64,000 bases of DNA from an uncultured Cytophagia bacterium (GCA_964387285.1 CAYLWO010000003.1:100759-164758); one strand, 5' to 3'; shown: positions 5,566-44,710, counted from the first letter of the stretch. Notes: a model not told the origin generated them from the sequence alone. Translations and numbers: made by a program.

Positions 5566-5570
5566 ACCGA

Positions 5571-29601: not shown

Positions 29602-30396
29602 CTAATACGCGACAAAATAACCTTCCAGATATACGTCCATCCTCAGGAAAAAATTATGACCCATTGTGTTGTCGACATTGTCAGATTCTACCGAGTATTG
29701 AAATTCATAGTTGGCCGCGGATTCGAGAACGACGGTAGCTGTTTGTGAATTCTCCCAGCAATCGCTATCATAAACCTGATGGCCGGCATCGATGTATAAC
29801 ACGCGTGTATCATCGGTAAATGAGCCGGAACGATCGATCCAGACATTTAAGATGGGATTATCGTATGTAAGTTTCCTTACATGAGCGTTAATACGAAGCA
29901 TGAGATGCTGGGTGTTGTCGGGAAAGTTGAATCCAGGTATTTTTTCCTGCAACCAGGTCAGCACATTGAATGTGCCTTGCTTTTTGTTGATGGCGTAAAG
30001 TTGTCCAAGATATCGACGAAGTGGAAAAAAAGCTCTGGCTCCTGTTGGTGCTGTGGGCAGCACGACGGTGTTTCCGTTGGAAATGCTTAGATTTTGTCCG
30101 TTTATGGATAATGTCTGTTGATCCGTATCGACGGGAATGGTCTCAACAGACAACAGTCCATTGGTCTCAACCGTTACCATGCGCTGCGGCGATGAACTCA
30201 GGCTGGAGATGCGCGCATTGCCATTCACATCCAATTGCGCATTTGGTTGCGTGGTGGCCAATCCCAGTCGGCCTTGCTCCGAGATGCGGACAATCTCGGC
30301 GCCCGAACCATTCCAAATTCGAATCTGCGCAATGCCGGCAACAACCGCACCGAGGAGCAGAATAATATTGATTGTTTGTTTTAGTAGGTTCAGCAT
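29602..30396 (-). CDS. Small secreted protein, paralog 2 of 3.
   Basis: GRLGLATTQPNAQLDVNGNARIS and DQQTLSINGQNLSISNGNTVVLP. C-terminus LEGYFVAY. Confidence 0.5.
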   Translation of the reverse strand: MLNLLKQTINIILLLGAVVAGIAQIRIWNGSGAEIVRISEQGRLGLATTQPNAQLDVNGNARISSLSSSPQRMVTVETNGLLSVETIPVDTDQQTLSINGQNLSISNGNTVVLPTAPTGARAFFPLRRYLGQLYAINKKQGTFNVLTWLQEKIPGFNFPDNTQHLMLRINAHVRKLTYDNPILNVWIDRSGSFTDDTRVLYIDAGHQVYDSDCWENSQTATVVLESAANYEFQYSVESDNVDNTMGHNFFLRMDVYLEGYFVAY

Positions 30397-30421
30397 GTTG
30401 ATACCCCTAAGTAGATTTCAC

Positions 30422-31228
30422 TCAGTTTAATTGTTTGTAATAGCCATCGATGTACACCATGGCAAAATACTTGCACGCCGCGTTGCCGGAACCCGACTTG
30501 CGAAATGAAAAGTTGAGGGTCTTGCTGTCTCCCAAAGCGATGATCTTGGAACAGCTGGTGTCTTTTTCCGGCGTCCTGAGATTATGGACGCCGTCTGCCG
30601 GATAACCATAATCAACATAAGCGATCATTTTTTCCAGAGAGATGGCGACATCCGGAGCGGTCATGACGTACAGCTGAAAATTGGGATTTGCCGCGCCTGT
30701 CGCGTCACCGTCAGCGATTACGCGCAACAGGATATGACTGGCATCAGCAGGGAGCAGCGCTCCCAAGATGTCACCTACATTAACGGAAAAATTAAAAGGA
30801 GTTGTATCCCTGGTTTCCGATTGATAGAGAAATTTACGCAACGGGTAAAATAGCAAAGCCGGTGCTGAGGGCATGCCCAGGCTCACTTCATTCCCGTCGG
30901 TAATACCGAGCATGTAGCCCAGATTGACGTCCGAACGAAGGTAGAGAGTCTGGTCGTCTGTATTTTGTGGAATGGCCATGGCCGACAATTCACCATTGGC
31001 ATCGGCGATCACCATTCTTTTTGCACCGCCCAGCAGATTCTGTACACGCATGGTGCCGACCACATCAAGACGCGCTTGCGGGTTTGTGGTCCCCAGTCCC
31101 AGAGAACCTGAGGAGGTGATCACTCCCAAGTTGCTTGCTCCTTCCTTGAACAATATTTGGGCAAAGAGATATTGAGTTACCAGCAACTTGAGCAAGAGAA
31201 TCAATATCAAGTTTTTCATTTTTAACAT
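30422..31228 (-). CDS. Small secreted protein, paralog 3 of 3.
   Basis: GSLGLGTTNPQARLDVVGTMRVQ and DDQTLYLRSDVNLGYMLGITDGNEVSLG. C-terminus IDGYYKQLN. Confidence 0.5.
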   Translation of the reverse strand: MLKMKNLILILLLKLLVTQYLFAQILFKEGASNLGVITSSGSLGLGTTNPQARLDVVGTMRVQNLLGGAKRMVIADANGELSAMAIPQNTDDQTLYLRSDVNLGYMLGITDGNEVSLGMPSAPALLFYPLRKFLYQSETRDTTPFNFSVNVGDILGALLPADASHILLRVIADGDATGAANPNFQLYVMTAPDVAISLEKMIAYVDYGYPADGVHNLRTPEKDTSCSKIIALGDSKTLNFSFRKSGSGNAACKYFAMVYIDGYYKQLN

Positions 31229-31770: not shown

Positions 31771-32916
31771 CTATTTCCGATTTGGATTGTACCGGATGGG
31801 TTTTCCTTCCACCCGCTCAATTGGATCATTGACAAAAACTCTGCCGAGTCCGATGGCAGAGGTGAGCGTGCCGCCTTTTTTGTCCTCGCTGATGCCGTCC
31901 GAGTAACCCAGATCCACCGGAACTTTGCCTCTGCCGCCCTGAGCATCTACCACATAAGTGGGTCGGAGAAATCCGGTGGTGGCGCCGCATAGGTCGCGAC
32001 AAATTTCTTTCCCTTTATTGACCGGTGTTCTGAAATGGCCCGTGCCTTCCACCAGATCAGCATAATAGAGATAATAGGGCCTGACGCCCATTTTCCCGAG
32101 ACTGTGCACAAGGTTGCGCATGACATCCGTATCATCGTTAACGCCTTTAAGCAAAACCGACTGGTTTCCTAATGGGATGCCCACTTGCCGCAATATTTGC
32201 ACAGCCTGCCAGCTTTCCTCAGTTATCTCATTGGGATGATTAAAATGGGTATTGATGAAAAGCTGTGGATCCTTGAACGATCGTGGCGTGTGACTCTTGA
32301 GCACCTCGATCAGTTCCGTATCCTCGACAATTTTCTGCGGCCAGACGCAGGGCACGCGGGTGCCGATGCGAATGACATCCAGGTGATCGATCTTTTTGAG
32401 CTTGCCTAAAATTTCATCGAGACGTTTGTTCGAAATGAGCAAAGGATCTCCGCCGGAGATCAGCACATCCCGGATCTCCTCATGGCCGGCAACATAGTCA
32501 ACGCCCTTCATGATCTCTTCGATAGCCGGATTTTTGTGGTCGTCGCCGACCTTGCGTTTTCTGGTGCAGAACCGGCAATACATGGCGCACTCGTTGGATA
32601 CGAACAACAGCACGCGGTCTGGATAACGGTGGATGATGGTTCTGGGACCTCCCAATGGAATATCACCCTCCTCATCCAGGGGATCCTCGCTCAAATCCAT
32701 GTAATGCTCGAGCTCTTCCACATCGGGAATGGCTTGTTTCCAGATGCCGTCGTTTATTTTTTGAATAAGGCTGAGATAATAGGTATTCACCCGCATCGGA
32801 TATTTGGCAATGACCTGCTCAAGCTGCGGATCAACGCGCGCACCCTGTCCTGTGAGCCATTTTTCCAGGTCTGCAAAGGTCTTGATCGCATTTTTTAGAA
32901 TATCTTTATAGGCCAT
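31771..32916 (-). CDS. KamA-family radical SAM aminomutase (lysine 2,3-aminomutase-like), C-terminally shorter than canonical KamA.
   Basis: CAMYCRFCTRKR (CxxxCxxC). Extensive similarity to Clostridium KamA (TPYYLSL..., NTHFNHPNEITEES..., LGNQSVLL.GVND, RPYYLY, HFRTPV). Lacks the C-terminal Cys-rich zinc tail. Confidence 0.8.
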   Translation of the reverse strand: MAYKDILKNAIKTFADLEKWLTGQGARVDPQLEQVIAKYPMRVNTYYLSLIQKINDGIWKQAIPDVEELEHYMDLSEDPLDEEGDIPLGGPRTIIHRYPDRVLLFVSNECAMYCRFCTRKRKVGDDHKNPAIEEIMKGVDYVAGHEEIRDVLISGGDPLLISNKRLDEILGKLKKIDHLDVIRIGTRVPCVWPQKIVEDTELIEVLKSHTPRSFKDPQLFINTHFNHPNEITEESWQAVQILRQVGIPLGNQSVLLKGVNDDTDVMRNLVHSLGKMGVRPYYLYYADLVEGTGHFRTPVNKGKEICRDLCGATTGFLRPTYVVDAQGGRGKVPVDLGYSDGISEDKKGGTLTSAIGLGRVFVNDPIERVEGKPIRYNPNRK

Positions 32917-32951: not shown

Positions 32952-33857
32952 TTACTGGTTTATAAATTCGGTGAGATCCAATTTCGGTAAATCCAATCCG
33001 ATTACCACCAGTTGATTTTTCCCCACCTGGCCGGTTGGGAACAACGTCTCCTGCCATGTGTCCTGGCCTGCATCAATATAATAGCACTGATTCTCGATAG
33101 TGACAAATCCCTTGGCGCGCAACTGGCTGCCCTGTATTTTTTGGACCAGCCTTTGCCACGCAGCGCGAGTAAAGATACCATCCGTTTGCAGGGTAAGGGA
33201 TTGCACCGGATCCGGACGCCCATCGCCCAATTCGCCAACCGGTGCAGGCCGCGGACGACGCAGACGCTGCAGCAGGTCCAGAGAAAAATTTGCGTATTGG
33301 GTTTCAATGACCTGCGCTCGCGGCGCCAGTTCTGCCAGAGCCTGACGTGTTGCGTCTAGAGCTTCTGCAGAAGCCAAATCGGTTTTATTCAGCAGGATCA
33401 GATCAGCGTTCACAACCTGTGAAATCGGCGCTTGCAGAAATTTAACGATTTTGAAAAAATTCGTCGCATCCACCAAAGCAACACAGGCCTGCAAATCAAT
33501 GCGCCGGATGAGATTAGGCAAGGCCAGCATTTTTTCCATCTCGGACGTATCGGCCAGACCTGTGGCTTCGATCAACAACAGCTCCGGCCTGAGCTGCACG
33601 GCGATGCGTTCGATTTCGTCGATAAAATCGGTGCGCACACAGATGCAGAACAGGCTGCCCTTGTTTAATTCTACCAGTTGATAATCGCCTTTGAGCAACA
33701 ATGCGCCGTCAATGCCCACCTGACCGAATTCATTGACCAGCAACACGGTGCGCCGGCTGCGATAATGCTCGATCAGCCGGTTCAGCAACGTGGTTTTGCC
33801 GGCAGCGAGAAAACCGGTGAGTAAAATGGTGGGAATCAATCCATGCTTTTCAGCCAT
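32952..33857 (-). CDS. COG0523 / CobW-family G3E GTPase (putative metallochaperone).
   Basis: P-loop GFLAAGKTTLLNRL, switch region LLVNEFGQVGIDG, and a C-terminal CobW_C-like region. Confidence 0.7.
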   Translation of the reverse strand: MAEKHGLIPTILLTGFLAAGKTTLLNRLIEHYRSRRTVLLVNEFGQVGIDGALLLKGDYQLVELNKGSLFCICVRTDFIDEIERIAVQLRPELLLIEATGLADTSEMEKMLALPNLIRRIDLQACVALVDATNFFKIVKFLQAPISQVVNADLILLNKTDLASAEALDATRQALAELAPRAQVIETQYANFSLDLLQRLRRPRPAPVGELGDGRPDPVQSLTLQTDGIFTRAAWQRLVQKIQGSQLRAKGFVTIENQCYYIDAGQDTWQETLFPTGQVGKNQLVVIGLDLPKLDLTEFINQ

Positions 33858-35455
33858 TCCTTGATGACCTCCACCGAAGGCACGCGACCATCCGCTTTAA
33901 CCTGCTCGACCACGCTGATGATAGCCGGCAATTCGTTGATCTGATAACCGGCGATTTTTTTCTTGTCAATGATTTTGTGGATTTCCACCCGACTGCCCAG
34001 TTCTTTCTGCGCCTGGCGTACGTTTTCCATTGCTTGACGACTGGCTTCGCTGTCGTCGGCCAAAACCAGCAACCGGCCGCGGTTTTGCCACATTTTAAGC
34101 GAATACTTTTCATTGATGCGTTGCTGAATGGCTTTGATCAATTCCTGGCGGGAAGGGATGATGCTGACGAATTTGATCTGTCCGTCGATGCAGATGGTGG
34201 GTATATTTTTCACCATCAGGCCCATCATAAACTCGATGGATTCCCGTTCCTTGATTTTGTGCTCGCGCCAGATGACCAGTCCGTGGAAACTTTCGACTGC
34301 TGAGCGCACCGCCTCCACCATATACTGGCAGGGTGCGCAGGATTCCGAATCCAGCGTCACCACATCGACGATGACCTGATCGGAGCGACCGTACTCGCTG
34401 AGATTAATGGTCTCCTCCGTTGCCTGTTCTTTGACCTGCAGCTCTTTTGCGACCTGTCGCTGATACGGATCTTGCACAAGGCCGGTGATCAGCTGCAGGT
34501 GATGAGGCGGCGTGGCAAAAGGCAAATCGCAACCCGGCGCCAGGATAAAGCCGGCATCCCCGCCGATCTCCAGACACTCCAGCGCATTGCGCGTCACGTC
34601 CGATTCTTTACCGAGCAGCAGGACCACGGTCAATTGCAGATTGCCGCCGAACGAGACCTTGTGTTTTTGACAAATGCTTTTGACAAAATCGAGGGGAATG
34701 TTTTCATCCACGGAAATGTTATCCGGCCCGGTCAGGCACATGTTTTCCACATTTTTCTGCGCATGACCGCAGACAAAAAACGAGCTCGGTTTCTTTCTAT
34801 TGCGCACATGCCGGAAAAAATCAGAAGCGTAAGGTGTCACGTATTCCTGAAACGCTTCGGGTGAAATCTGGCTGGTCATGGGATCGACAATGGAAATGAT
34901 GTCGCAGTTATGATCAATATAAATATCGGCCATGCTTTTGGCCACGGTGGTGCAATAAGCCAACAAGGCTTTAACCTCATCAGGCCGGTCATACATGTCG
35001 ATAAAAATGGAAGTGCCTTTCAGATGCAAAGCCAGAGTAAAAGGACCGGTGATCAAACCATAGAGGGCCACATCCGGAGCTGATTTTTGTATCTGCTGCA
35101 AAGCGTACAGGATAACAGGGATTCGACCGGCTGTGGCGGACAATGGCGGCAGGTCCTGCAGTTGTTTTTCATCCAAAACATGGCTCTGTACTGCCGGTGG
35201 ATTTTCCGGGGCCCACTGCAGCTTACAGCCGAGAATTTCCGCTTCAACCGAGAGATCGAAATAAACCGGAATGCCGTCCGGTTTATACAGCTCGATGGCC
35301 TTTAAGATGCCTTTGGTCAATAAATCGCCGGATTTTAGAAATGACTCGGCATCTGTTTGGATCAACGAAGCGCCGTGACAACCAACGAACGGCACCCAGG
35401 GCGTCCGTTCGGTTTTTTTACCGTGGATGGCGTCTAACAGGAGGCTTTTGCCCAT
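33836..35455 (-). CDS. URO-D/MtaA-like (uroporphyrinogen decarboxylase family) domain fused to two tandem thioredoxin-fold (redox-active disulfide protein 2-like) domains.
   Basis: URO-D-like N-terminus KSLLLDAIHGKKTERTPWVP; ...APGCDLPFATPP. C-terminal domain 1 has CAPC (CxxC). Domain 2 (...GYQINELPAIISVVEQVKADGRVPSVEVIKEWL) matches the MTH895-type thioredoxin fold but lacks CxxC. Confidence 0.55.
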   Translation of the reverse strand: MGKSLLLDAIHGKKTERTPWVPFVGCHGASLIQTDAESFLKSGDLLTKGILKAIELYKPDGIPVYFDLSVEAEILGCKLQWAPENPPAVQSHVLDEKQLQDLPPLSATAGRIPVILYALQQIQKSAPDVALYGLITGPFTLALHLKGTSIFIDMYDRPDEVKALLAYCTTVAKSMADIYIDHNCDIISIVDPMTSQISPEAFQEYVTPYASDFFRHVRNRKKPSSFFVCGHAQKNVENMCLTGPDNISVDENIPLDFVKSICQKHKVSFGGNLQLTVVLLLGKESDVTRNALECLEIGGDAGFILAPGCDLPFATPPHHLQLITGLVQDPYQRQVAKELQVKEQATEETINLSEYGRSDQVIVDVVTLDSESCAPCQYMVEAVRSAVESFHGLVIWREHKIKERESIEFMMGLMVKNIPTICIDGQIKFVSIIPSRQELIKAIQQRINEKYSLKMWQNRGRLLVLADDSEASRQAMENVRQAQKELGSRVEIHKIIDKKKIAGYQINELPAIISVVEQVKADGRVPSVEVIKEWLKSMD

Positions 35456-35707
35456 ATGAAACGACCTTTCTTATGATTTACAACTTTTGAGCGGCTTTGT
35501 CCGTATTGCGATTTATATATCAAGGAGTGCAAAGCAAACACTCAGCAGGTTAGCTGATTAATATGGTTTTAAATTATGAATTTCAAGGGGTTCAGACAAG
35601 CATTATTTTTCTGTGCGTCAGGTCAAATTCTTAAAATAAAGAATTTGCGAAAACTGATTAGAATGACTAAATTTATATCTAAATTTTTCATCAAGAAGGG
35701 AGCAAGT

Positions 35708-36430
35708 ATGCGTAGTAAAATTCTAGTGTGTGCGGCAGTGGTGGCGATGATGATCAATTCGGTTTATGCGGATATCATGATGAAGCGAAAAATACATACT
35801 GATGCCATGAAGATGATGGGCATGACCACGCCGGCCAAAGATGAAATCAGCACCACCTGGATCGCTGAGGGCAAAATGAGCAATGACAGTCCGGAGAGCA
35901 TGGTGATCCTGCGCAGCGATAAAGAGGTCATTTATACCATTTCGAAAAAAGATAAAAAGTATGTGGAAATTCCGTTCAGCACGCTTACCAGTGTTGCCGC
36001 TGATCCTCAAATGGATGAGGTCATGAAGGGCATGGCCGGTCAGATAAAAATCTCCATTACCGAAACGGCAGAGACCAAGGACATCAACGGATGGAAATGC
36101 CGTAAATATAACCAGGTGATGACCATGCCCATGGTCGGACCCGTGACCAGTGAAGTGTGGGCCAGCCCGGACATCAAGGTCGATTTTGAAATGTATATGA
36201 AAGCGTCGGCTGCCTTGTATGCGCGCATGCCGGGCATGGGCAGCGCTTTGCAGGATATCATTAAAGAGATGAAAAAAATGAAAGGCATTCCGGTTCTGAC
36301 CACGACGACCATGAAAATGATGGGCGCTGAGATGAAAACCAGCGACGAACTGCTGGAAGTCAAAGAGGATAAAGCGCCGGCCGGCGTGTTTGAGATTCCG
36401 GCCGGATACAAAAAGACGGATATGAAATAA
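35708..36430 (+). CDS. DUF4412-like periplasmic protein.
   Basis: Start at MRSKILVCAAVVAMM after AAGAAGGGA. Met-rich MKMMGMTTPAKDE region typical of DUF4412. Confidence 0.5.
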   Translation: MRSKILVCAAVVAMMINSVYADIMMKRKIHTDAMKMMGMTTPAKDEISTTWIAEGKMSNDSPESMVILRSDKEVIYTISKKDKKYVEIPFSTLTSVAADPQMDEVMKGMAGQIKISITETAETKDINGWKCRKYNQVMTMPMVGPVTSEVWASPDIKVDFEMYMKASAALYARMPGMGSALQDIIKEMKKMKGIPVLTTTTMKMMGAEMKTSDELLEVKEDKAPAGVFEIPAGYKKTDMK

Positions 36431-36710: not shown

Positions 36711-37712
36711 TTACGGATATACCTCCAGCGCCCTGCTTTGCGCCAGCAAATTCTCTGGCGGCGTGCCATCCGGAATTTCGCAACCAGCGGCGCTAAAGCA
36801 GGTTTCCCCACCGTTGATAATACAGTCGCCGACCGCTTTGCTTACTTTTGCCGGTGAACCGAAACGCATGATGCTTACCGGATTCTGATTGCCGCACACA
36901 GCGGCCTGAGGAGTGAAAATGTGCGCCGCCCTTTTCAGATCCACCATCCAATCAACATCGATGATGTCTGCGTCGGACAAAACCATGTCCGATAAAATCG
37001 CACTGGTGTCGCCGCAAATATGCAAACGTGTTAATGCACCGGCTTTTTTAACTGCGCTAAAAATTCGCTGTTCATAGGGCAAGGCATACCGTTGATAGAA
37101 TAGTGGAGATATCTGCGAAGCAATGGCATCGCCGAGGCCGATGATATCGGCCCCGGCCTGCACTTGCGCAAGGGCAAACGCGGTTTCCTGTTCACAGGCA
37201 AAAGCCAACAGATCCTGCAGCCATGCCGGCTCGTCGCACAGAGCGGTCAAAAGCTGCGTTACGCCCATCAGGGTTGCACTCAGCGCCAATGCCCCTTCCA
37301 CCCATCCCATACTCATTACCTCCGGTCTCTGCTGATGAAAGAGGGCAATAGCCTGTAATCGGTCTGCCATACGTGGACCGGATTCCGGTTGAACCATTCT
37401 GAGGGATAGAATGTCCTGCGGTGTGTTGATGAGCGGAGTTGTGCAAACCGGCAGGTCGTCCTGGGGAAAATGAATCCTGCTGCCCAAATCATGCGCTTCG
37501 CGATAGGGATCCGAGATGGCCTGCAGTACATCGAGTTGAAAATCCCGCTGCGCGTGAAAATTGGCCTCAGCTAAAACGCGGTAGTCCTGGTAATATTCAG
37601 ACAACGGTCGCTGTATATGGTGGCAGGCAAAGATCATCATGATGTTGAAATTGGGGACACGGTCCACCGTCTTGCCCTGCAGCCGGTGTTGCACTCTCTC
37701 TTTACTGTTCAC
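36711..37712 (-). CDS. MtaA/CmuA-family zinc methyltransferase (URO-D superfamily).
   Basis: GTG start 8 nt after the aclA stop gives MNSKERVQHRLQGKTVDRVP; the annotated 37823 start would overlap aclA by 104 nt. Zinc motif LHICGDTSAIL and downstream GCEIP. Confidence 0.65.
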   Translation of the reverse strand: MNSKERVQHRLQGKTVDRVPNFNIMMIFACHHIQRPLSEYYQDYRVLAEANFHAQRDFQLDVLQAISDPYREAHDLGSRIHFPQDDLPVCTTPLINTPQDILSLRMVQPESGPRMADRLQAIALFHQQRPEVMSMGWVEGALALSATLMGVTQLLTALCDEPAWLQDLLAFACEQETAFALAQVQAGADIIGLGDAIASQISPLFYQRYALPYEQRIFSAVKKAGALTRLHICGDTSAILSDMVLSDADIIDVDWMVDLKRAAHIFTPQAAVCGNQNPVSIMRFGSPAKVSKAVGDCIINGGETCFSAAGCEIPDGTPPENLLAQSRALEVYP

Positions 37713-37719
37713 AATCGTC

Positions 37720-40443
37720 TCAGATAACGAATTGAATTTTATCCTGCGGCGTACGGCAATCCATATCCAGGCCGCGATCACGATGATCCGCGATTTCCGC
37801 AGCAATGCCGATGGCGCGACCATACAGGAATTGTGTAAACGATAAATCCTGCACCATGCTGATGGTGATGCGTTTGGAATGCAAATCCTTCCACACCAGT
37901 TTTAAAATAATCACGGCCAGCACCGCATCGATATTGACGCAAAAGACGTTTTTGGTGACGCCTTCATTGAAAAGCTCTTTGACCAACAGTCGGTAAAACT
38001 CGTGAAAGGCGTTATAGATGCCGCGTTGCGCCATTTCGTCATAGATGAATTTTTCGCGCGGATCGATGTTGACGGCATTGCCTTTAAAAACCGGATGGTT
38101 GATGCAGGGAATGCGTTTGATCGGTTGCTCGGTTTGTTCTTTTTCCGTTTTTTTATAATCGCGATAATGGCAGGCCGCATCATGGGCGAGCTTTTTTAAA
38201 TCGAGATTATGGTTGCGGTCGCCCGGGTCTGCCTCGATCGTGGGGAAATTCTCCAGCAGAAAAGCAATGGCCTCAAATCCATTGCCGCCATGGGCCAGCC
38301 CCGTGCTGGTCAGAAAACCGAGAAACGCCGTGGCAATGTGATTGCGCGCACTGACCGATTGCTTGGCCCCTTTGGCCGACAGGGTGCCGGGTCCGTTGGT
38401 CAGGGTCAATCCGATCAGGGACTGGAATTCGAACAGCTCGGTCTCATTCGGCTTGCGATTGAACAAGATCGCAAAAGCGTTTTCGGTAAAACTGTTGTTC
38501 AGGTTGTCGATTTTGGCGTCTATCAGTTCCCGCCAGTATTGGTTCTGTTTACGATCAATAACCGAATAAGCCACAATGCGGCTGATGATGTAAAAATAGG
38601 TTACCGCGTCCTCGACCACCTGTCGACTGATTCGTTTTTCCAGCATGGGCTTCCAGAACAGCGCCACGGCAATGCCGCCCATCAAAAACTCGTATTGATC
38701 ACGAATGTCTTTATTTTTCTCTTCTGCCAGATGAATGATGTGCTGCAATACCCGGATGGGAAAAGATTTCTTGGACGATTTTTTGATCTCTTTAAGAAAA
38801 AGCTCGGAAACGTCGGTTTTGCGTATGGGTTCATCGGTGAGCAAATGCACATCAAGATATTCATCCAGGGCCTGCGGAAACGCTTTGGTCACATCGCTGA
38901 TTTCGAATTCGCGGATCAAATCGATTAGGAAACAGGCCGCATCGCGCGCTTTGGCCAGCATTTGTCGATTGCCGATAAGGGCGATCTGCGAGCCGATGTA
39001 GGCGTTGGGCGTGCAACCGTTGCTGCGCGCCACATCCACGAGGTCCATGCGTCGCTCGTCCATTTTCAAAAACAGATTCAGCAAGAGATTAATGGTGGCT
39101 ACATCGTCCGCTTCCGGCATCACCTTGGCCAGACTGAAATAAATGTTCTCTTCCATGGAATGTTTGGCCAGTTCCAGAATGGACCGGCCATGCAATTCCG
39201 AAACCTGGGTCTTGGGATCCATGCGCGAGGCGCCGGATTTGTCCGCCATATTCTGTCGTAAAAAATGCGCGCCCACCTGTTTGTTGATCTCTTTGATCTG
39301 CTGATCATAGGGCGGCATGGCAGTTACCACCGGCATATCCAATTCTTTGGGCATTTTTATCCAGGAATCGCTGATCCATAGTTTCAGCGACAGATCGCCC
39401 TGGCTTTTAAAATCGCTCTCTTCGCCCATAGCCGCAAACACGGCTTTCATGGCATCAGGAAAGTGCTGGATGGAAGCCACGCGCACGCCACGCTTGCCCA
39501 CCTCTATCCTGGCCGGATTGAAAACCGGCACGCCGAAATAGTCGTCGAACCACTTTTCTTTGGATTCGGCGTCGTCGCCGCTGCCGGCCAATGCACCGGC
39601 ATGGCCGCACGAGCGCTGAATGTCTTTTTTCCAGCGACCGGTAACGCAAACCACAATGGGTTTGTTAAAACCGAACCGTCGTTCCGCAATCCAGTCCAGC
39701 GCCATTTTTTCATAATAACCGCCCGGCTCCACATAGAGCGCCACGGCCTTGGTGCGCGGATCGTTTTGTGCGGCATATAAAAACTCGGGCAGGGCGAAAT
39801 GAATGTAAATATCCTTGCCGGAACTCACCGCTGTGCTGATGCCGAATCCGGCAGAGCGCAGGTACTCGGCAATGGTGGTGGTGAAATTGCCGGAATTGGA
39901 ATGCAACGCCACCGATCCTTTTACCAGCGCTTCTGCGGGATTGTCGCCGCCCAGGGCGCCGCCGACGCGTACGTGATCCCACACATTGGCCACGCCCAGA
40001 CAATTGGCGCCGATGATGTCTACCCCTGCCTCCTGACAGACAAAGCGACAATTGCGCGAATCCCGGGCCGGCACTTTTTCGGTGACGATGACCACTCGTT
40101 TGAGTTTATCGTTATAATAGGCCAGTTCGGCAACCGCCTGACTCACCGCCAACGGCGGCAAATAGATGACGCCGATGTCAAAAAAAATGCCTTGTTCCAT
40201 GACATCTCGAATACTGCTGTACACCGGGATGGGACCGATCCTGGTCTCCAGTTCGCCTTTGCGTCCATATTGTACGCCGGCAACAATATTGCCGCCGCTG
40301 TATTCGTGCGACACCGGTGTGACCTTGCGGCTCTCGTTGCCCAATATATTGATGACGCACACGCGCGAATCCCGCGTGGCCATTTCTTCCAGAGAATGAA
40401 CGCCGAGAAAGTAAGGAAACGGTTTGGTCTTTTGTGGTCTCAT
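37720..40443 (-). CDS. ATP-citrate lyase alpha-like subunit: SucD-like CoA-binding/ligase domain fused to a citrate-synthase-like domain (AclA-like, about 908 aa).
   Basis: Start chosen at MRPQKTKPFPYFLG (ATG 40443) to avoid overlap with aclB. Phospho-His loop SCGHAGALAGSGDD (compare SucD MGHAGAI). C-terminal STGLAHGGNGFEAIAFL resembles the citrate synthase GPxHGGANE motif. Confidence 0.6.
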   Translation of the reverse strand: MRPQKTKPFPYFLGVHSLEEMATRDSRVCVINILGNESRKVTPVSHEYSGGNIVAGVQYGRKGELETRIGPIPVYSSIRDVMEQGIFFDIGVIYLPPLAVSQAVAELAYYNDKLKRVVIVTEKVPARDSRNCRFVCQEAGVDIIGANCLGVANVWDHVRVGGALGGDNPAEALVKGSVALHSNSGNFTTTIAEYLRSAGFGISTAVSSGKDIYIHFALPEFLYAAQNDPRTKAVALYVEPGGYYEKMALDWIAERRFGFNKPIVVCVTGRWKKDIQRSCGHAGALAGSGDDAESKEKWFDDYFGVPVFNPARIEVGKRGVRVASIQHFPDAMKAVFAAMGEESDFKSQGDLSLKLWISDSWIKMPKELDMPVVTAMPPYDQQIKEINKQVGAHFLRQNMADKSGASRMDPKTQVSELHGRSILELAKHSMEENIYFSLAKVMPEADDVATINLLLNLFLKMDERRMDLVDVARSNGCTPNAYIGSQIALIGNRQMLAKARDAACFLIDLIREFEISDVTKAFPQALDEYLDVHLLTDEPIRKTDVSELFLKEIKKSSKKSFPIRVLQHIIHLAEEKNKDIRDQYEFLMGGIAVALFWKPMLEKRISRQVVEDAVTYFYIISRIVAYSVIDRKQNQYWRELIDAKIDNLNNSFTENAFAILFNRKPNETELFEFQSLIGLTLTNGPGTLSAKGAKQSVSARNHIATAFLGFLTSTGLAHGGNGFEAIAFLLENFPTIEADPGDRNHNLDLKKLAHDAACHYRDYKKTEKEQTEQPIKRIPCINHPVFKGNAVNIDPREKFIYDEMAQRGIYNAFHEFYRLLVKELFNEGVTKNVFCVNIDAVLAVIILKLVWKDLHSKRITISMVQDLSFTQFLYGRAIGIAAEIADHRDRGLDMDCRTPQDKIQFVI

Positions 40444-40505
40444 GAAAAAATTTACCCTTGCAAAGGTTGCTGATTTGATGAAATACGAATTTTGTGTTCG
40501 CTTTT

Positions 40506-41795
40506 CTAAATTAAAACCGGATTTTCGCTCAAGCGCTGACTCCAGTTTATATAGTCTGTCCTGCCTATTTCTCGCCACCAGCTATCCACGCGTTTGGCAT
40601 ATTCCAGCACCTGGATCATCGATGTGTCGTAACCGAACATCTTGTAGGGCAACTTTAAGGTGTCCAGAATGTCCTTGCCGTAAAACATGCCCTTGATCAG
40701 ATTGGGACCGCCGCGTCCCACAACGGTATAAATGGGAGTTTTACCGTGATGCGACATGTGGTCGCGTAAAGCGTCAAAAATCCCTTTGAAGGTGACATAG
40801 ATATCCGTGTTGTTGGCTTTGCCGCCGATGATGAGGAGAACACTGGCTTTGTTGAGCCAATGCTTGAAAACAATGCGGCTGATTTCGTACATTTTTTCAT
40901 AAGGCGGATTGCCGCCGAAATCGGACGCAAAAATAGCGGACGCGCCCAAAGTTTCTGTGGCCGCTGAATTGGCGCCGCCGCCGAACATAAAAGGCATGAT
41001 GCTGCCGTTGGGATTGAGTTCCAGCACGTCACTCTGTCCCTGATAGGTGCGCAGCTGATTGATTTCGGATTCGAACGGAGAGATATCGGATTGAAAAATG
41101 GTTGCCGGCAATCCCAGCCGCTTCCAGGCAGGATTGTCCTGATCGAACTGCGCTTTGAGATCACAGGCTATGGGGATCAGTTTGCCGTCGCTTTTCATCA
41201 TGCGAATGGGATTGATTTCCAGCGTGGTCAGGCCATAGTTGTCGTACAGACTCCACAGCTTGGGCAGATTTTGCACCAGCGGTGAGATATACGCTTCCGG
41301 ACAACCGGTATCGGTCAACGCATTGGTGATGTCAAAGGATTTCAAGCCGATAAAAGGATCGATCCAGATGACCTGCTTTTTATCAAAGGACAGGCTTTCG
41401 ATGTCCATGCCGCCAAATGGTGAAATGGTAAAGATGGGTTTACGGTGGGCCGTGGAAGCTGCGATACTAAAGTACACCTCAATCTCGGAGGGGATGAACG
41501 CTTCAAAAGTCACGCCGTTGGCATAGACGGTCTTGCTGCCGTATTGATGGCCGGCAAAGTACAACTCTTTTTTGGCCTGTAAGGCATCGAGCACATTGTC
41601 GACGATGCGCACCAGTCCGGCTTTGCCCTTTTTACCTACGCCGCCTGAAAAAAAAGGCTTCACTACCAGTTTTTTATGCTGAGTAAGAAGCCTTTGAATT
41701 TGTTCCTTGGTGGCGTCGGCTGTCAGAAATGGGGCATAGGGAAACTCGACCAGATCCAGCAGCTGAGCGCCGTACTTGAGTCCGGAGATTTGCAT
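40506..41795 (-). CDS. ATP-citrate lyase beta-like subunit (SucC-like ATP-grasp, AclB-like).
   Basis: LVVKPFFSGGVGKKGKAGLVRIV aligns with ACLY/AclB LVVKPDQLIKRRGKLGLV. Full SucC-like length, immediately upstream of the SucD+CS fusion. Confidence 0.65.
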   Translation of the reverse strand: MQISGLKYGAQLLDLVEFPYAPFLTADATKEQIQRLLTQHKKLVVKPFFSGGVGKKGKAGLVRIVDNVLDALQAKKELYFAGHQYGSKTVYANGVTFEAFIPSEIEVYFSIAASTAHRKPIFTISPFGGMDIESLSFDKKQVIWIDPFIGLKSFDITNALTDTGCPEAYISPLVQNLPKLWSLYDNYGLTTLEINPIRMMKSDGKLIPIACDLKAQFDQDNPAWKRLGLPATIFQSDISPFESEINQLRTYQGQSDVLELNPNGSIMPFMFGGGANSAATETLGASAIFASDFGGNPPYEKMYEISRIVFKHWLNKASVLLIIGGKANNTDIYVTFKGIFDALRDHMSHHGKTPIYTVVGRGGPNLIKGMFYGKDILDTLKLPYKMFGYDTSMIQVLEYAKRVDSWWREIGRTDYINWSQRLSENPVLI

Positions 41796-42229
41796 AGTAT
41801 CCTTTGATAATACTGAGGTTACCTATTATTCCAATACAAAAAAACCACAAATATTAGTTTAGGAATTTTCCGGGAAATATCCAAAGGTTTATTGGACTGA
41901 TTTATGCAGGGAACATCAAATTTCAAGGAGCACTTTGCTCATTAAATTTATATTGTTGGAGCCGCTTCCGAGTGGCGACCGTCGGTCAGGATCTTAAAAA
42001 ATCGCGATCGCGGAGAATGATATACTGGATTGGATTTTTACTGCTTGTCTCTTCTTGTCGCGCATGGCAACGAAATTTGGATAAAAACCAATTTTTTAAA
42101 ACTGTCTTTCAAACAAAGATTGAACCGTAACCTTTTTCTCAACTTCATCTGACTTTTTACTAAAGTAATATGACTCTTCCAATATTTATATTTTTTCGTA
42201 TTTCATATTTCCCCTGAAATCCAGTGTTT

Positions 42230-43177
42230 TTAAAAATATCCCCACGTCCTCAACAAGAATATCCCGATGGCTATGGTTACGGAACTAGCTAAAGTGGACA
42301 ACAGAATGATATTCCCTGCCAACCGACCGTTGCTGCCCATGGCTTCAGCCATGATATAGCTCGCCACCGCAGCGGGGGAGGCAAAAAAGAAAAACAGAGC
42401 GGCCAGTTCGTGTTTGCTGAAATGCATATACAACGCAGCCAATATGACCATGATCGGAGAAAGAATCAATTTGATAAAAGAGGCGAACGCAGCCAGCCTG
42501 AAATCCTGTTTGACGCCGGTAAAGCTCAGGCTGCCGCCGATGCCGATAAGCGCCAACGGCAGCGTGATGGTTGCGAGTTGATTAGTAGCAGAATACATAA
42601 TTTCTGGAATGGTAATTTTAAAAATAGAAAAAGGCAGAGCGGCGGCAGCGGCCAGAATCAAAGGATTAGTCGCTACATCTTTGGCGATCTTTTTCCAGGG
42701 CAGCTGTTTTTCGCTGTGTTGCGTGACAGTCAGGGCAACGATAGCCAGCAGATTATAAGGCGGCATCATAAAACTGAGCAGCACTGCTGCGTTGGCCAGA
42801 GGTGCATCGCCAAAAGCGCTTTTAATCATGGCAAAACCGAGAATGGCAAAATTGCCGCGAAAGCTGCCCTGGATAAAAGCACCGCGGTCCCGTCCATCCG
42901 GCGCCAGCAGGACGCCGACGATCCAGGAGAGTGAAAAGACCACGGCTATGGCGGCATAGGTGAACAACACCAGCCGGCCGTTGAAAGCAGCGCCAAAATC
43001 GGTAACCGCGATTTTACTGAACAGCAGCGCCGGCAGAGCGACGAGAAAAACAAATCGCGATGACACGCGATTAAAGTGATCGTCGATAATATTTTTGCGC
43101 TTCAACCATACGCCCAACAGCACAATGATAAAAATCGGCGCAACGATTTTTACGGCGAAAATGATATTTTGTATCAT
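42230..43177 (-). CDS. AEC-family (auxin efflux carrier / malate permease-like) transporter.
   Basis: 10-TM protein with the characteristic N-terminal MIQNIIFAVKIVAPIFIIVLLGVWLKR. Confidence 0.7.
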   Translation of the reverse strand: MIQNIIFAVKIVAPIFIIVLLGVWLKRKNIIDDHFNRVSSRFVFLVALPALLFSKIAVTDFGAAFNGRLVLFTYAAIAVVFSLSWIVGVLLAPDGRDRGAFIQGSFRGNFAILGFAMIKSAFGDAPLANAAVLLSFMMPPYNLLAIVALTVTQHSEKQLPWKKIAKDVATNPLILAAAAALPFSIFKITIPEIMYSATNQLATITLPLALIGIGGSLSFTGVKQDFRLAAFASFIKLILSPIMVILAALYMHFSKHELAALFFFFASPAAVASYIMAEAMGSNGRLAGNIILLSTLASSVTIAIGIFLLRTWGYF

Positions 43178-43261: not shown

Positions 43262-44710
43262 TTAACGTTCAACGTTCAACGTGGTACGTATCTCTCCTCT
43301 GGCCAGTGAAGCGACTACGCCAATGGAACACAGCGCTGCCGCTGCCCAAAGAATATAATGCATGCTGTCGATAAAACGGCCGTGCAATTCCGGCGTAATA
43401 ATCCGCCGTCCCACGAAAACGTTCAGCACCAGCGCGGCCAGTCCCATGCTGAACATTTGTCCCAGTAAACGCATGGTGCTGACCATGGCTGAGGCGGCGC
43501 CGTAATGTCGCTTGCTCACCGAGCTCATGACGGCATTGGTGTTGGGCGAGGAAAAGAGCCCGAATCCTACGCCGAGGATGACCAGATTAAAAACGATGTA
43601 CCAGAGCGGTGAGTCAATGGTTACAAAACTCAATAATAAAAGTCCGATTACATTCAACATCATGCCAAAAGAGGCGGGCAGTCGCGGCTCGATGCGGTCC
43701 GAGAGCCGACCGGCAATGGGCGAGGCCAGGGTTTGCACCAGCGGCTGCGCCATCATCAGCAATCCGGCCGTACGCGGCGGCAGTTCTTTGATATATTGCA
43801 GATAAAGACTGACGACGAAAACGACCGCGGTCGTCGCCCCGTAATTGATCAAAGCCGCCAGGTTGGAAAAAGTGAAAGCACGATTTTGGGTAAACAGCTG
43901 CAGATCGACGAGCGGATGATGCAATCGTTTCTGGCGCAAAACAAACAACAGCATGCAGGTCACGCCGCAGGCCATAAGGGCCAGTCCCTTGGGTTGCGGT
44001 AAAATGGAAAAACCATACAGCAGCGTGCACAGGGCAGCAGCCAATAAAAGCGATCCGGCAACATCAAATCGTTCATTGGGAGATTCGGTCCATTCGTATT
44101 GCAGGTATCGGCGAATGATATAAAGGATGACAAGGCAGACCGGCACGACAAAGATAAAAATGGCGCGCCAGCCGAACCATTGGGTCAACAGGCCGCCCAG
44201 GACCGGGCCGACGGACAACCCCAGATAAACCGCAGCTACATTCATCCCCAGTGCCCGACCCCGTTCACCCAAAGGGAACGCAGAGGTCAGCATGGCCACG
44301 CCGTTGGCAAACATCATGGCGCTGCCGATTCCCTGCATGGTCCGGCTAAGCAACAGCCAGAAAATGGACGGCGCTGCGGCCGCCAGTATCGAGGCCAGCA
44401 TAAAGAGAATGAGACCATGGCTGAAAATTCGTTTACGGCCGTAAATGTCTGCCAGTCGGCCAAAAGCCAGGACCAGAACGGCTGAGGATAACAGATAAGA
44501 GGTGGCGATCCAGCTCATCAACACGGCATCCAGATGAAATGTGCGGCTTATGGCCGGCAAGGCGATGTTGATTCCTGAGGCCATGATGGGAATAAATGCA
44601 GAACTGGCTGTGACTACAATAAGCAGAGCGCGTCTTTGTCTAAGGTCATTCATGCGACTGTCTTTCCGAATTCTGGATAAAATGTTCAGTAACCCTGAAC
44701 CATCCGGCAA
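43262..44710 (-). CDS. MFS transporter, DHA2 (EmrB/QacA-like, 14-TM) drug:H+ antiporter family.
   Basis: 14 predicted TM segments. Conserved motif LADIYGRKRIF (motif A-like). True start may be the internal MNDLRQRRALL (44653). Confidence 0.7.
   Translation of the reverse strand: MPDGSGLLNILSRIRKDSRMNDLRQRRALLIVVTASSAFIPIMASGINIALPAISRTFHLDAVLMSWIATSYLLSSAVLVLAFGRLADIYGRKRIFSHGLILFMLASILAAAAPSIFWLLLSRTMQGIGSAMMFANGVAMLTSAFPLGERGRALGMNVAAVYLGLSVGPVLGGLLTQWFGWRAIFIFVVPVCLVILYIIRRYLQYEWTESPNERFDVAGSLLLAAALCTLLYGFSILPQPKGLALMACGVTCMLLFVLRQKRLHHPLVDLQLFTQNRAFTFSNLAALINYGATTAVVFVVSLYLQYIKELPPRTAGLLMMAQPLVQTLASPIAGRLSDRIEPRLPASFGMMLNVIGLLLLSFVTIDSPLWYIVFNLVILGVGFGLFSSPNTNAVMSSVSKRHYGAASAMVSTMRLLGQMFSMGLAALVLNVFVGRRIITPELHGRFIDSMHYILWAAAALCSIGVVASLARGEIRTTLNVER

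Follow-up and report, generated by a model that had tools for sequence, protein, structure and literature searches.

A probable type II ATP-citrate lyase with an internally duplicated lyase module and an adjacent URO-D family gene

ATP-citrate lyase (ACL) of type II is a provisional family name that was derived from Magnetococcus and tubeworm symbionts (Hügler and Sievert 2011). Carriers include Ca. Endoriftia persephone, other tubeworm symbionts, Magnetococcus and Thioflavicoccus mobilis, and the primer pair acl2F1/acl2R1 is available for the type II gene (Thiel et al. 2012; PMC3522073). In the literature that we searched, no type II ACL turned out to have been characterised biochemically or structurally, and no assay with a purified enzyme of this type came to light. 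The type II enzyme is not treated in an eLife paper on Thermovibrio, a paper on Ignavibacterium album describes a genome without it, and a search for literature on Geothrix and ACL found nothing. Gmet_0305-0306 of Geobacter metallireducens appears to be a member of the family, and we infer from the matching description that ABB30551.1 (Geobacter) corresponds to this locus. In the available part of its description, the G. metallireducens model iAF987 contains an ATP-citrate lyase reaction, the genes for which are unnamed there, and uses it for CO2 fixation; the growth on formate that the model predicted was confirmed (PMC3998878). A recent carbon-fixation survey takes variants of K15230/K15231 as ACL markers, with rTCA1a occurring chiefly in green sulfur bacteria and Nitrospirota and rTCA1b in Campylobacterota and Aquificota. 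The 'rTCA1b' of a 2026 preprint was considered as a candidate for type II ACL and rejected, as it denotes the Campylobacterota/Aquificota enzyme.

The locus described here lies in a window of 64,000 nucleotides (the whole stretch of DNA that was analysed) and comprises three co-directional genes on the minus strand, encoding a beta-like, an alpha-like and a URO-D/MtaA-like protein (Table 1). A sequence-only reading of this DNA had listed the three open reading frames, and all were present on the minus strand at the positions it reported. The alpha-like reading frame extends from 40578 to 37720; because the first methionine is invariant across 35 homologues of 906-909 aa, we placed the start at the ATG at 40443, giving 907 aa. 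The MtaA-like reading frame runs from 37823 to 36711, and the GTG at 37712 is its supported start since a 77%-identical orthologue begins MNSK at the same residue; the resulting length of 333 aa was also called in independent Logan assemblies. The alpha stop codon occupies 37722-37720, and the gap to the MtaA-like gene is 7 nt, not the 8 nt first reported. This junction recurs in assemblies of two independent read sets (L063 and L064) and is thus not an assembly artefact. Because 7 nt is too short for a terminator, the MtaA-like gene is probably co-transcribed with alpha in this genome. A scan of the region for promoters and terminators returned no convincing terminator and fewer promoter-like sites than chance (2 against 6.3 expected), so the match upstream of the beta gene is given as a note of position and not as functional evidence.

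Table 1. Features of the locus, with positions counted from the first letter of the window
Feature	Positions	Strand	Remarks
Type II ACL small (beta-like) subunit, ATP-grasp and citrate-binding domain	40506..41795	-	429 aa
Type II ACL large (alpha-like) subunit	37720..40443	-	907 aa; stop codon included
MtaA/CmuA-like zinc-motif protein of the URO-D family	36711..37712	-	333 aa; GTG start
Spacer, alpha stop codon to MtaA-like GTG	37713..37719	-	7 nt; read from sequence
Weak match to a sigma-70-like promoter (TTGGAA-16-TATTAT) immediately upstream of beta	41807..41834	-	Promoter scan
CoA-binding and SucD/CcsB-like domains, alpha residues 23-340	39424..40377	-	Pfam CoA_binding, Succ_CoA_lig, Ligase_CoA
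Conserved linker, ~60 aa, alpha residues 341-403	39235..39423	-	Low confidence in model
Degenerate first copy of citryl-CoA-lyase-like module, alpha residues 404-624	38572..39234	-	hhalign; ~220 aa
Catalytic CCL/citrate-synthase-like module, alpha residues 625-907	37723..38571	-	Homology, invariant residues

The analysis shows the domain make-up of the proteins, their conservation, the duplication inside alpha, the family to which the pair belongs and its synteny. The beta-like protein, which includes LVVKPFFSGGVGKKGKAGLV, contains the Pfam domains ATP-grasp_2 and Citrate_bind (PF16114), the latter scoring 68.4 bits where the cutoff is 26.8. Its best PDB match is the large subunit of H. thermophilus citryl-CoA synthetase (CCS; 6hxq_B, 115 bits), followed by ACL/ACLY (81-89 bits) and the beta subunit of succinyl-CoA synthetase (SCS; 49 bits), and its ANNT and GRGGPN motifs align with both CCS and ACL. 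Against canonical AclB the score is 60 bits. The alpha-like protein carries the phosphohistidine loop GHAGA, with His281 at codon 39601-39603, and G280-H281-A282-G283-A284 are invariant in 39/39 sequences. In profile searches against the PDB, its synthetase part matched the CCS small subunit with 163 bits, SCS-alpha with 130, C. limicola AclA with 68 and human ACLY with 56. By these sequence matches the synthetase parts of both subunits are closest to CCS, ahead of canonical ACL. The earlier grouping of the two proteins with AclB and AclA needs correction in that the synthetase halves have CCS as their nearest match.

The same searches bear on whether the pair could be a divergent SCS paralogue fused to an inactive relic of citrate synthase. 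The SCS alpha and beta equivalogs are indeed its best named NCBIfam matches, and homologues are labelled 'succinyl-CoA synthetase alpha subunit' by JGI. However, the scores fall well under the equivalog cutoffs (130 against 336 bits for alpha and 70 against 370 for beta), CCS ranks above SCS for alpha, as CCS and ACL do for beta, and a Citrate_bind domain is present. The catalytic residues of the lyase module described below are moreover all invariant, which would be unexpected in a relic, and we regard this explanation as highly improbable.

Membership of the type II family was apparent from the metagenome contig L073, in which both type II ACL primers match exactly, about 1.3 kb apart, inside a 905-aa alpha gene. 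The L073 alpha is 45% identical to the alpha described here across 906/907 residues, and the beta that precedes it is 54% identical to ours over 412 residues. The peptides encoded at the primer sites, VAKEEWF and NGFEAIA, are family motifs located at alpha aa 293-299 and 721-727. Downstream of its pair, L073 encodes a monomeric isocitrate dehydrogenase (IDH), aconitase, PntAB and malate dehydrogenase (MDH). Alpha homologues of 906-911 aa at 44-92% identity number in the hundreds and come from many phyla, with a mean column identity of 61-74% in the family alignments, and the 907-aa alpha is the family norm and no peculiarity of this locus. Both genes are adjacent, with the small subunit followed by a large one of about 900 aa, which is the gene order of type II ACL. 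The two subunits together probably constitute a type II ACL, a predicted enzyme of an already named family. The ACL activity is predicted from homology and from a single operon context, that of L073 at 45% identity. The initial reading of the pair as ACL-like was borne out by the ATP-grasp and citrate-binding beta, the phosphohistidine alpha and a C-terminal module of the citrate synthase (CS)/citryl-CoA lyase (CCL) type with His/His/Asp motifs. Alpha had also been taken for an oversized AclA; the excess does sit in the citrate-synthase-like part, but the length is standard for the type II architecture rather than a feature of an unusual AclA.

Alpha owes its length to a conserved linker and to a tandem copy of the lyase module that has degenerated, with this first copy accounting for the main share of the extra ~300 aa and the linker for the remainder. 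A comparison by hhalign of the family profile over residues 404-624 with that over 625-878 gave a probability of 96.5% and E = 9.4e-10 over 218 columns, while reversed and column-shuffled controls gave E values of 0.08-0.7. This clear repeat signal came from a 294-sequence family alignment; an earlier test with a 16-sequence alignment had produced only a 33-column match with a probability of 77%. In copy 1, the hhalign alignment has a gap opposite H718, a deletion spanning the H783/DPR loop and a Glu opposite D839. Both catalytic histidines are missing from this degenerate copy. Direct sequence and profile searches of residues 300-907 against the PDB returned marginal CCL/CS matches for copy 2 and no match to residues 396-624. 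Residues 404-624 are all-helical with high pLDDT in the predicted model. The linker has pLDDT values below 50 at residues 351-401 and contains invariant positions (D344, F345, G349, L351, L353, K354, W356, P378, Y379 and G391); it may contact the beta subunit or another chain. Where a full-length citrate-synthase-like module or an extra linker had been suggested, alpha holds a linker together with a degenerate lyase-module duplicate.

Copy 2 retains H718 (AHGGNG), H783 (NHPVF), R796 (DPRE), D839 (VNIDA) and R876, all of them invariant in 39/39 sequences with identities as low as 43%. The C-terminal domain therefore does carry the catalytic residues of the CS fold (H718, H783 and D839), on which the ACL assignment had been made to depend. 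A FEMS survey used H491 and D543 of 6hxj as ACL markers, and by motif and spacing H783 and D839 of alpha are likely their equivalents. Sequence similarity of copy 2 to solved enzymes was detectable for H. thermophilus citryl-CoA lyase (Ccl; 6hxp, E = 1.4e-3, residues 644-733 against 27-116) and for B. subtilis citrate synthase (E = 4.7e-3). The Pfam Citrate_synt match of alpha is weak (27.1 bits against a cutoff of 27), and the NCBIfam citryl-CoA lyase model gave 28 bits against a cutoff of 212. Because the SucD-like domain dominated a Foldseek search with the whole protein, which was uninformative on the extra region, alpha aa 396-907 (512 aa) were modelled separately (pLDDT 86, pTM 0.89). 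The best 50 PDB matches of this model were all citrate or 2-methylcitrate synthases, with TM scores of 0.54-0.71 normalised to the target, so the closest solved folds of the modelled two-copy body appear to be citrate synthases. Overall the fold search favours CS, and we considered whether the C-terminal 510 aa might simply be collinear with a full-length citrate synthase. This arrangement appears doubtful: by sequence the CS/CCL register starts only at aa ~623, and the SF helix and the HGG motif are separated by a CCL-like distance (67 aa, as in Ccl, compared with about 165-170 aa in B. subtilis CS).

By homology with CCS, ACL and SCS, we propose the following mechanism, in which enzyme activity, substrate and reaction direction are all predictions. 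The beta subunit would bind ATP through its ATP-grasp domain and citrate through the Citrate_bind domain and its ANNT/GRGGPN motifs. His281 of the alpha GHAGA loop would be phosphorylated and pass the phosphate to citrate, and CoA held on the N-terminal domain of alpha would then yield citryl-CoA. Finally, the C-terminal module, with H718, H783, D839, R796 and R876, would cleave citryl-CoA to acetyl-CoA and oxaloacetate.

Copy 1 is presumably a structural pseudo-partner of copy 2. Canonical ACL reportedly has a homotetrameric CCL core, a finding attributed to Verschueren and colleagues in 2019; if so, two type II alpha chains could supply such a core. Taken one step further, the dead and live lyase copies would form an intramolecular pseudo-dimer, the enzyme would be an independent fusion of CCS and lyase with a predicted oligomeric state of (alpha-beta)2 rather than (alpha-beta)4, and the family would serve central metabolism in many lineages as an ATP-coupled citrate synthase/lyase and would not be an autotrophy marker. 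The last part draws on the observation that most carriers are heterotrophs. As a joint proposition this is speculative, and we doubt that every part of it will hold. If the pseudo-dimer is real, type II ACL would represent a present-day counterpart of a form standing between the tetrameric CCL and the dimeric citrate synthase.

Beta adjoins alpha in every related locus that has upstream sequence, and among 57 related loci nothing but the beta-alpha pair is conserved as a unit; no other neighbouring family is common to more than 5/57. No rTCA genes (Kor, Frd or Por) were found in the 64-kb window, the gene content of which points to polysaccharide degradation and anaerobic respiration. Genes for MFS and Mem_trans transporters lie upstream of the pair here, and MFS and DctA genes lie beside it in Paraburkholderia. 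The family is common in aerobic heterotrophs with no known rTCA autotrophy (Variovorax, Cupriavidus and Polaromonas), occurs on megaplasmids of Paraburkholderia and Sinorhizobium, and is also found in Geothrix, Geobacter, Anaeromyxobacter and Melioribacter, hosts that are heterotrophic or respire anaerobically. Since the pair stands alone in a heterotroph-like context, interconversion of acetyl-CoA and oxaloacetate in central or citrate metabolism is a more likely role here than that of an rTCA-operon marker.

These observations are also in keeping with a reading in which the chemistry is the same but the role or direction differs, with the enzyme acting as an ATP-conserving citrate synthase or in citrate catabolism and not in an autotrophic rTCA cycle. 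Desulfobacter postgatei offers an ATP-citrate lyase precedent. Non-autotrophs dominate the host range, the stand-alone pair lacks conserved rTCA neighbours in the 57 loci, and the window with its adjoining transporter genes fits such a role. On the other hand, the pair in L073, a locus of the tubeworm-symbiont type, heads an IDH-aconitase-MDH operon consistent with rTCA, and the G. metallireducens model, in the part of its description cited above, fixes CO2 through ATP-citrate lyase with growth on formate confirmed; direction, moreover, cannot be read from a sequence. We consider this reading possible but hold it with some doubt. It is compatible with the pair being a type II ACL.

Host range also raises the question of substrate. 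In Aminobacter the pair ends an operon with four oxidoreductases and a class III alcohol dehydrogenase upstream, and this dehydrogenase operon, together with the heterotrophic hosts, leaves room for another role in physiology or for a related substrate. The enzyme could then act on a relative of citrate, such as 2-methylcitrate (yielding propionyl-CoA and oxaloacetate) or another hydroxy-tricarboxylate, and would not be a true citrate lyase. 2-Methylcitrate synthases are among the best fold matches, some sources name homologues 'citrate/2-methylcitrate synthase', and the catabolic operon of Aminobacter hints at a non-central substrate. However, the beta Citrate_bind domain scores above its Pfam cutoff, the ANNT/GRGGPN motifs are common to CCS and ACL, the L073 operon with aconitase, IDH and MDH fits citrate, and the very high degree of conservation across phyla fits a substrate of central metabolism. 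An alternative substrate therefore seems unlikely to us.

The third gene had been read as a canonical MtaA with a perfect zinc signature, and its adjacency as a coupling of citrate cleavage to methyl transfer. The protein is a full-length match to Pfam URO-D (E = 4.7e-54), and the LHICGDT and GCEIP motifs (an H-x-C ... C zinc-ligand motif) are present and conserved in the 77% orthologue. Nevertheless, the protein falls below every curated NCBIfam cutoff, with 140.9 bits against 235.4 for TIGR01463 MtaA/CmuA, 89.7 against 400 for the MtaA equivalog and 100.9 against 600 for MtbA, so 'canonical' was an overstatement.

A functional coupling of citrate cleavage to a corrinoid/thiol methyltransferase within one pathway would be in keeping with the 7-nt gap, which leaves no room for a terminator, with the confirmation of the junction in independent assemblies, and with the presence of a URO-D gene downstream of alpha in a 92%-identical relative as well. 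In that relative, the closest one, however, a peroxiredoxin gene and two gaps of ~180-240 nt separate alpha from the 77% MtaA-like orthologue, and in 82%-identity relatives (L001, L002 and L006) the MtaA-like gene is absent despite otherwise identical flanks. None of the 43 related loci with at least 1.2 kb of downstream sequence has the gene directly after alpha. Homologues at 57-59% identity are located elsewhere: one in a KSB1 MAG (57%) lies beside B12-binding, S-methyl_trans and Met_synt_B12 genes, and one from Chloroflexota lies beside an inositol-phosphate synthase gene. Among the neighbouring ORFs and in the window, we found no corrinoid-protein/B12-binding gene or substrate-specific methyltransferase gene adjacent to the MtaA-like gene, and we found neither a recurrent, independent ACL-URO-D adjacency in unrelated lineages nor a biochemical link. 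With synteny missing in relatives, the linkage is incidental and the proposed coupling very improbable. Judged by these comparisons of gene order, the MtaA-like gene is a lineage-specific neighbour that was probably brought in by rearrangement and not a functional partner of the ACL.

The locus is thus best annotated as a type II ACL pair next to an unrelated URO-D family gene, with no new pathway linking citrate to methyl transfer. Such annotation is of use because the family is poorly described in public databases, where members appear as 'CoA-binding protein', 'succinyl-CoA synthetase alpha subunit', 'citrate/2-methylcitrate synthase' or 'hypothetical'. As the hosts are mostly non-autotrophic, the use of type II ACL as an rTCA marker, as practised for tubeworm symbionts, may over-call autotrophy. 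The duplication of the lyase module leads to a testable prediction of quaternary structure and has implications for the proposal that citrate synthase descended from a citryl-CoA lyase module.

Among known systems, the type II ACL of L073 is the closest, with the same order of two genes, a large subunit of ~905 aa, end-to-end homology and shared catalytic and binding motifs. In contrast to L073, where the pair heads a TCA/rTCA-type operon, the pair described here lies outside any such operon, its host is heterotroph-like with candidate division KSB1 as the nearest named relatives, and its downstream neighbour is a URO-D family gene. That neighbour differs from the MtaA/CmuA methylcobamide:CoM methyltransferases in being a bacterial gene, with subfamily members at ~60% identity in KSB1, Chloroflexota and Phycisphaerae. 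Canonical ACL (Chlorobium limicola AclBA, 6hxj, and human ACLY) shares with our pair the ATP-grasp and citrate-binding subunit, the SucD-like CoA-binding part with its phosphohistidine loop and a C-terminal CCL-type module with catalytic His and Asp. However, canonical AclA has 617 aa in the 6hxj_B construct (~610 aa) with a single CCL-type module straight after the SucD-like part, whereas the 907-aa alpha has an added linker and a second lyase module that is degenerate.

The CcsAB (6hxq) and Ccl (6hxp) proteins of H. thermophilus provide the best PDB sequence matches for both synthetase parts, and Ccl residues 30-132 align without gaps to the catalytic copy, in a stretch that covers both the SF...LF helix and AHGG. 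In the CCS and Ccl system the lyase is a separate protein of ~260 aa, while here, as in ACL, it forms one chain with the small synthetase subunit, and it is tandem-duplicated. Citrate and 2-methylcitrate synthases share the His-His-Asp catalytic and DPR/Arg oxaloacetate-binding motifs and give the best fold matches, but their similarity in sequence is marginal (the E value for B. subtilis given above), and in our protein the module is fused to a CoA-ligase.

The three consecutive minus-strand open reading frames proposed in the sequence-only reading were all present when the sequence was read out, and the motifs quoted for them (VVKP...GKKGKAGLV, GHAGA, HGG, LHICGDT and GCEIP) were all found in the translations. 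Met1 of the alpha-like protein and the adjoining motif are kept in 35 homologues of 906-909 aa. For the MtaA-like gene, a member of the URO-D superfamily, the closest-relative orthologue begins MNSK at the same residue and is 77% identical from residue 1, and independent gene calls in Logan assemblies gave the same length. The short gap between the alpha stop codon (37722-37720) and the GTG of the MtaA-like gene was also real, at 7 nt instead of the 8 nt first given, and because of this spacing the two genes are likely co-transcribed in this one genome. Independent assemblies of two read sets (L063 and L064) show the same junction between them, so it is not an assembly artefact.

Features of the ATP-citrate lyase-like locus and its surroundings
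Feature	Coordinates	Strand	Length	Remarks
MFS transporter	44710..43262	minus		upstream of Mem_trans and beta
Mem_trans permease	43177..42230	minus		directly before beta
Beta-like gene	41795..40506	minus	429 aa	
Alpha-like gene	40443..37720	minus	907 aa	ORF open from 40578; start ATG 40443
MtaA-like gene	37712..36711	minus	333 aa	ORF open from 37823; supported start GTG 37712
DUF4412 gene	35576..36430	plus		convergent, beyond the MtaA-like gene
URO-D-thioredoxin fusion	35455..33836	minus	539 aa	C-terminal Thioredoxin_3
CobW-type GTPase	33857..32952	minus	301 aa	overlaps the URO-D-thioredoxin gene
Radical-SAM/KamA-like gene	32916..31771	minus	381 aa	after CobW
Three consecutive ORFs	28717-31228	minus	264-272 aa	
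DMSO-reductase-family trio	24755-28445	minus	764, 224 and 261 aa	molybdopterin oxidoreductase, 4Fe-4S dicluster protein, DmsC-like anchor

In Pfam, the beta-like protein matched ATP-grasp_2 and the citrate-binding domain of ATP-citrate lyase (ACL) (PF16114, 68.4 bits vs a cutoff of 26.8). The alpha-like protein matched CoA_binding, Succ_CoA_lig and Ligase_CoA, with a borderline Citrate_synt match at residues 618-848. NCBIfam returned only sub-threshold matches for the pair, to succinyl-CoA synthetase (SCS) subunits and citryl-CoA lyase. We ruled out an SCS identity because these scores were far under the cutoffs. Among solved structures, both synthetase parts are closest by profile and sequence comparison to the citryl-CoA synthetase (CCS) of Hydrogenobacter thermophilus. 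A family profile of the alpha N-terminus scored 163 bits against CCS chain 6hxq_A, 130 against the best SCS-alpha, 68 against Chlorobium AclA and 56 against human ACLY. Beta scored 115 bits against 6hxq_B, 81-89 against archaeal ACL and human ACLY, 60 against Chlorobium AclB and 49 against SCS-beta; its ANNT and GRGGPN segments are common to CCS and ACL in the alignments.

The extra length of alpha had been attributed to a full citrate synthase (CS)-like module or a linker domain, which was close and correctly located; more precisely, it consists of a linker and a dead tandem copy of the lyase. The AlphaFold model of the whole protein has a SucD-like N-terminal part, a low-confidence linker at about residues 341-403 and a confidently modelled all-helical region from about 400 to about 890. 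The linker (residues 341-403, 39235-39423) has pLDDT below 50, yet it is conserved in sequence, with D344, F345, G349, L351, L353, K354, W356, P378, Y379 and G391 invariant. It may be that this segment folds only against beta or another chain. In sequence searches, the recognisable lyase- or CS-like catalytic module occupied residues ~625-907. It aligned without gaps to residues 30-132 of the H. thermophilus citryl-CoA lyase (Ccl), including the SF...LF helix and AHGG, and its NHPVF...DPRE and VNIDA segments aligned with GHRYY...DPR and NVDG of Ccl. H718, H783, R796, D839 and R876 did not vary across the 39 sequences compared, the most distant at 43% identity.

The preceding ~225 residues (404-624) had no direct sequence match in the PDB. 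When they were compared with residues 625-878 by hhalign, using a family profile of 132 sequences after a 90% identity filter, the two segments aligned over 218 columns with a probability of 96.5% and E = 9.4e-10. The score was 70, compared with 11-19 (E 0.08-0.7) for reversed and column-shuffled controls. On this profile evidence, residues 404-624 are a diverged copy of the catalytic module. In the same alignment the first copy has a gap opposite His718, a deletion of the His783/DPR loop and a glutamate at the position of Asp839, and it is thus almost certainly non-catalytic. Residues 396-907 modelled alone reached a pLDDT of 86 and a pTM of 0.89, and the 50 best PDB matches to this model were all citrate or 2-methylcitrate synthases (E from 6e-7, 491-539 columns, TM normalised to the target 0.54-0.71), covering nearly all 512 residues. 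As modelled, the dead and live copies together build a single body, and citrate synthases are the solved folds nearest to it. In HMM comparison the N-terminus of Bacillus subtilis CS fell at alpha residues 623-673, and the distance from the SF helix to HGG is 67 aa in alpha, as in Ccl, vs ~165-170 aa in B. subtilis CS. The profile of residues 625-722 also matched B. subtilis CS (PDB 2c6x) twice, at residues 14-64 and 128-216, a weak signal (domain E-values of at least 0.15) hinting that CS itself repeats its SF-helix region in part. We found no description of a tandem live and dead lyase duplication in the literature searched, a scope that leaves out Hügler & Sievert 2011 and Verschueren et al. 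2019.

A putative second type of ACL has been described in Riftia and Tevnia symbionts and Magnetococcus (Hügler & Sievert 2011, as cited in PMC3522073, PMC6315080 and PMC3362086), and primers for its large subunit were published by Thiel et al. (PMC3522073). Translated, these primers read VAKEEWF and NGFEAIA; in the alpha-like protein the corresponding segments are SKEKWF (294-299) and NGFEAIA (721-727), both of which are family-wide motifs. We searched metagenome contigs for exact matches to the reverse primer site, and one of the hits (L073) also carries an exact forward primer site ~1.3 kb upstream. Both sites lie inside a 905-aa ORF that aligns with our alpha over its full length at 45% identity; the ORF before it has 423 aa and is 54% identical to our beta. 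The two pairs share all catalytic and binding motifs. From 570 to 13501 the contig encodes beta, alpha, monomeric isocitrate dehydrogenase (IDH), aconitase, PntA, PntB and malate dehydrogenase, a compact TCA/rTCA operon with a PntAB transhydrogenase. Of the gene contexts available, this downstream set gives the strongest evidence that the family handles citrate and oxaloacetate.

With every feature testable here present in the sequence, we assign the pair to the type II ACL family. The original ACL-like call was therefore right for both genes, and its reading of alpha as an unusual AclA gives way to membership of a known family; the locus adds a member to a family already named. Another member, ABB30551.1 (52% identity), is carried by Geobacter metallireducens. 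It appears to be one of Gmet_0305-0306, with the link from accession to locus tag drawn by us, and a later metabolic model of this organism includes an ATP-citrate lyase reaction (PMC3998878). No report of purification, kinetics or structure of a type II enzyme was found in the literature searched.

The length of alpha, initially regarded as oversized, is the family norm. The best 120 database matches were 863-909 aa long, nearly all 906-909, at 64-100% identity, and came from Geothrix and other Holophagae, Thermoanaerobaculia, Ignavibacteriota and unclassified bacteria. Further carriers among the genome loci were KSB1, Melioribacter, Kapabacteria, Anaeromyxobacter, Calditrichota, SAR324, Krumholzibacteria and Leptospirales, and a second search added a large Burkholderiales clade of 900-914 aa (Variovorax, Cupriavidus necator, Polaromonas, Acidovorax, Ralstonia). 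Clustering at 50% left few full-length representatives, so the alpha family is compact and well conserved. A related pair in a Planctomycetota MAG (L077, 4213-7644) has a 409-aa beta and a split or frameshifted alpha in overlapping 170-aa and 547-aa ORFs. These add up to ~690 aa, less than the 907-aa form, and variants with a reduced first lyase copy may thus exist. The same locus has a faint URO-D gene 3.4 kb downstream on the opposite strand.

Plasmid records placed alpha on megaplasmids of Paraburkholderia, Caballeronia, Sinorhizobium, Microvirga and Aminobacter. On plasmid pUSP3 of Aminobacter sp. MSH1 (L061, 1-11706), the pair closes an operon under IclR control whose other genes encode a substrate-binding protein, four NAD(P)/SDR oxidoreductases and a class III alcohol dehydrogenase. 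On pBN1 of Paraburkholderia aromaticivorans (L062, 7701-15291) the genes after the pair encode an MFS transporter, a substrate-binding protein and DctA. Such gene contexts on plasmids from aerobic soil bacteria point to catabolic roles for the enzyme.

Beta lay directly upstream of alpha in every related locus with upstream sequence. When all neighbouring ORFs were clustered, no other family was common to more than 5 of 57 loci; the pair thus stands on its own as a two-gene unit and has travelled among widely differing genomes. Three loci at 82% identity (L001, L002, L006) keep MFS, Mem_trans, beta, alpha and DUF4412, and two of them (L002, L006) also keep the URO-D-thioredoxin fusion and CobW, L001 ending before both genes. 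The latter two genes are likewise conserved in the 92% relative (L058-L060). The URO-D domain of the fusion reads FVCGH at the position of LHICG in the MtaA-like gene, which leaves the H-x-C zinc motif without its His in position. Farther along, the DMSO-reductase-type trio suggests anaerobic respiration, and the three ORFs between it and the radical-SAM gene had no Pfam match at E <= 0.001. Elsewhere the window encodes glycoside hydrolases (GH3, fucosidase, rhamnosidase), efflux and ABC transporters, Fpg and Mla proteins; no Kor, Por or fumarate reductase genes were found within its 64 kb.

The MtaA-like protein had been called canonical; it has the MtaA zinc motif and scores under all curated MtaA/CmuA cutoffs. 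Its gene is missing from the three 82% relatives. In the 92% relative, alpha is followed by a 199-aa peroxiredoxin (AhpC-TSA/1-cysPrx_C, ~12903-13502 in L059) and then by the MtaA-like orthologue (332 aa, 77% identity), with gaps of ~180-240 nt around the peroxiredoxin. The window lacks the peroxiredoxin gene, and only 7 nt part alpha from the MtaA-like gene there. Where at least 1.2 kb of sequence follows alpha (43 loci), the next gene differs in strand, distance and size, and in none of the other related loci does a URO-D gene lie directly 3' of alpha. The proposed coupling of citrate cleavage to a methyltransferase is thus not upheld, and the linkage is incidental, by the criterion set in the sequence-only reading, because the synteny is absent in relatives. 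Homologues of the MtaA-like protein with 57-65% identity occur in KSB1, Chloroflexota and Phycisphaerae, and their gene neighbourhoods are unrelated. In a KSB1 MAG (L067, 3086-10347) the 57% homologue directly follows NuoF-like, [FeFe]-hydrogenase-like and 2Fe-2S thioredoxin-like genes and precedes a B12-binding corrinoid protein, an S-methyl_trans (homocysteine methyltransferase-type) protein and a Met_synt_B12 activation-domain protein, which together look like a split methionine-synthase-like methyl-transfer set. In a Chloroflexota genome a homologue adjoins inositol-1-phosphate synthase.

The invariant residues, domain order, internal duplication, family membership and one TCA-operon context (at 45% identity) were observed here; the reaction path that we propose is modelled on the established mechanisms of SCS, CCS and ACLY. 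ATP bound in the beta ATP-grasp domain would phosphorylate His281, the phosphate would pass to citrate on the beta citrate-binding domain, and attack by CoA would yield citryl-CoA. The live copy (His718, His783, Asp839) would then split citryl-CoA into acetyl-CoA and oxaloacetate by a retro-Claisen reaction. Its dead counterpart probably acts as the partner surface that a second lyase protomer offers in canonical ACL; if so, we predict that a pair of alpha chains could make up a counterpart of the tetrameric citryl-CoA lyase (CCL) core. Most type II ACL hosts are heterotrophs or anaerobic respirers, and the enzyme may therefore draw acetyl-CoA from citrate, take part in citrate breakdown, or work in the citrate-forming direction with a gain of ATP, as does the ACL of Desulfobacter postgatei.

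Overall, the original observation, the ACL-like call and the placement of the extra length have held up, and the methyltransferase coupling has not. The locus is of moderate to low interest, and of more only if the family-wide architectural and physiological reading holds. Compared with known systems, the pair is not canonical AclAB because neither its architecture nor its nearest relatives fit. Nor is it a split CCS/CCL system: the lyase is separate there, whereas here it is fused within alpha.
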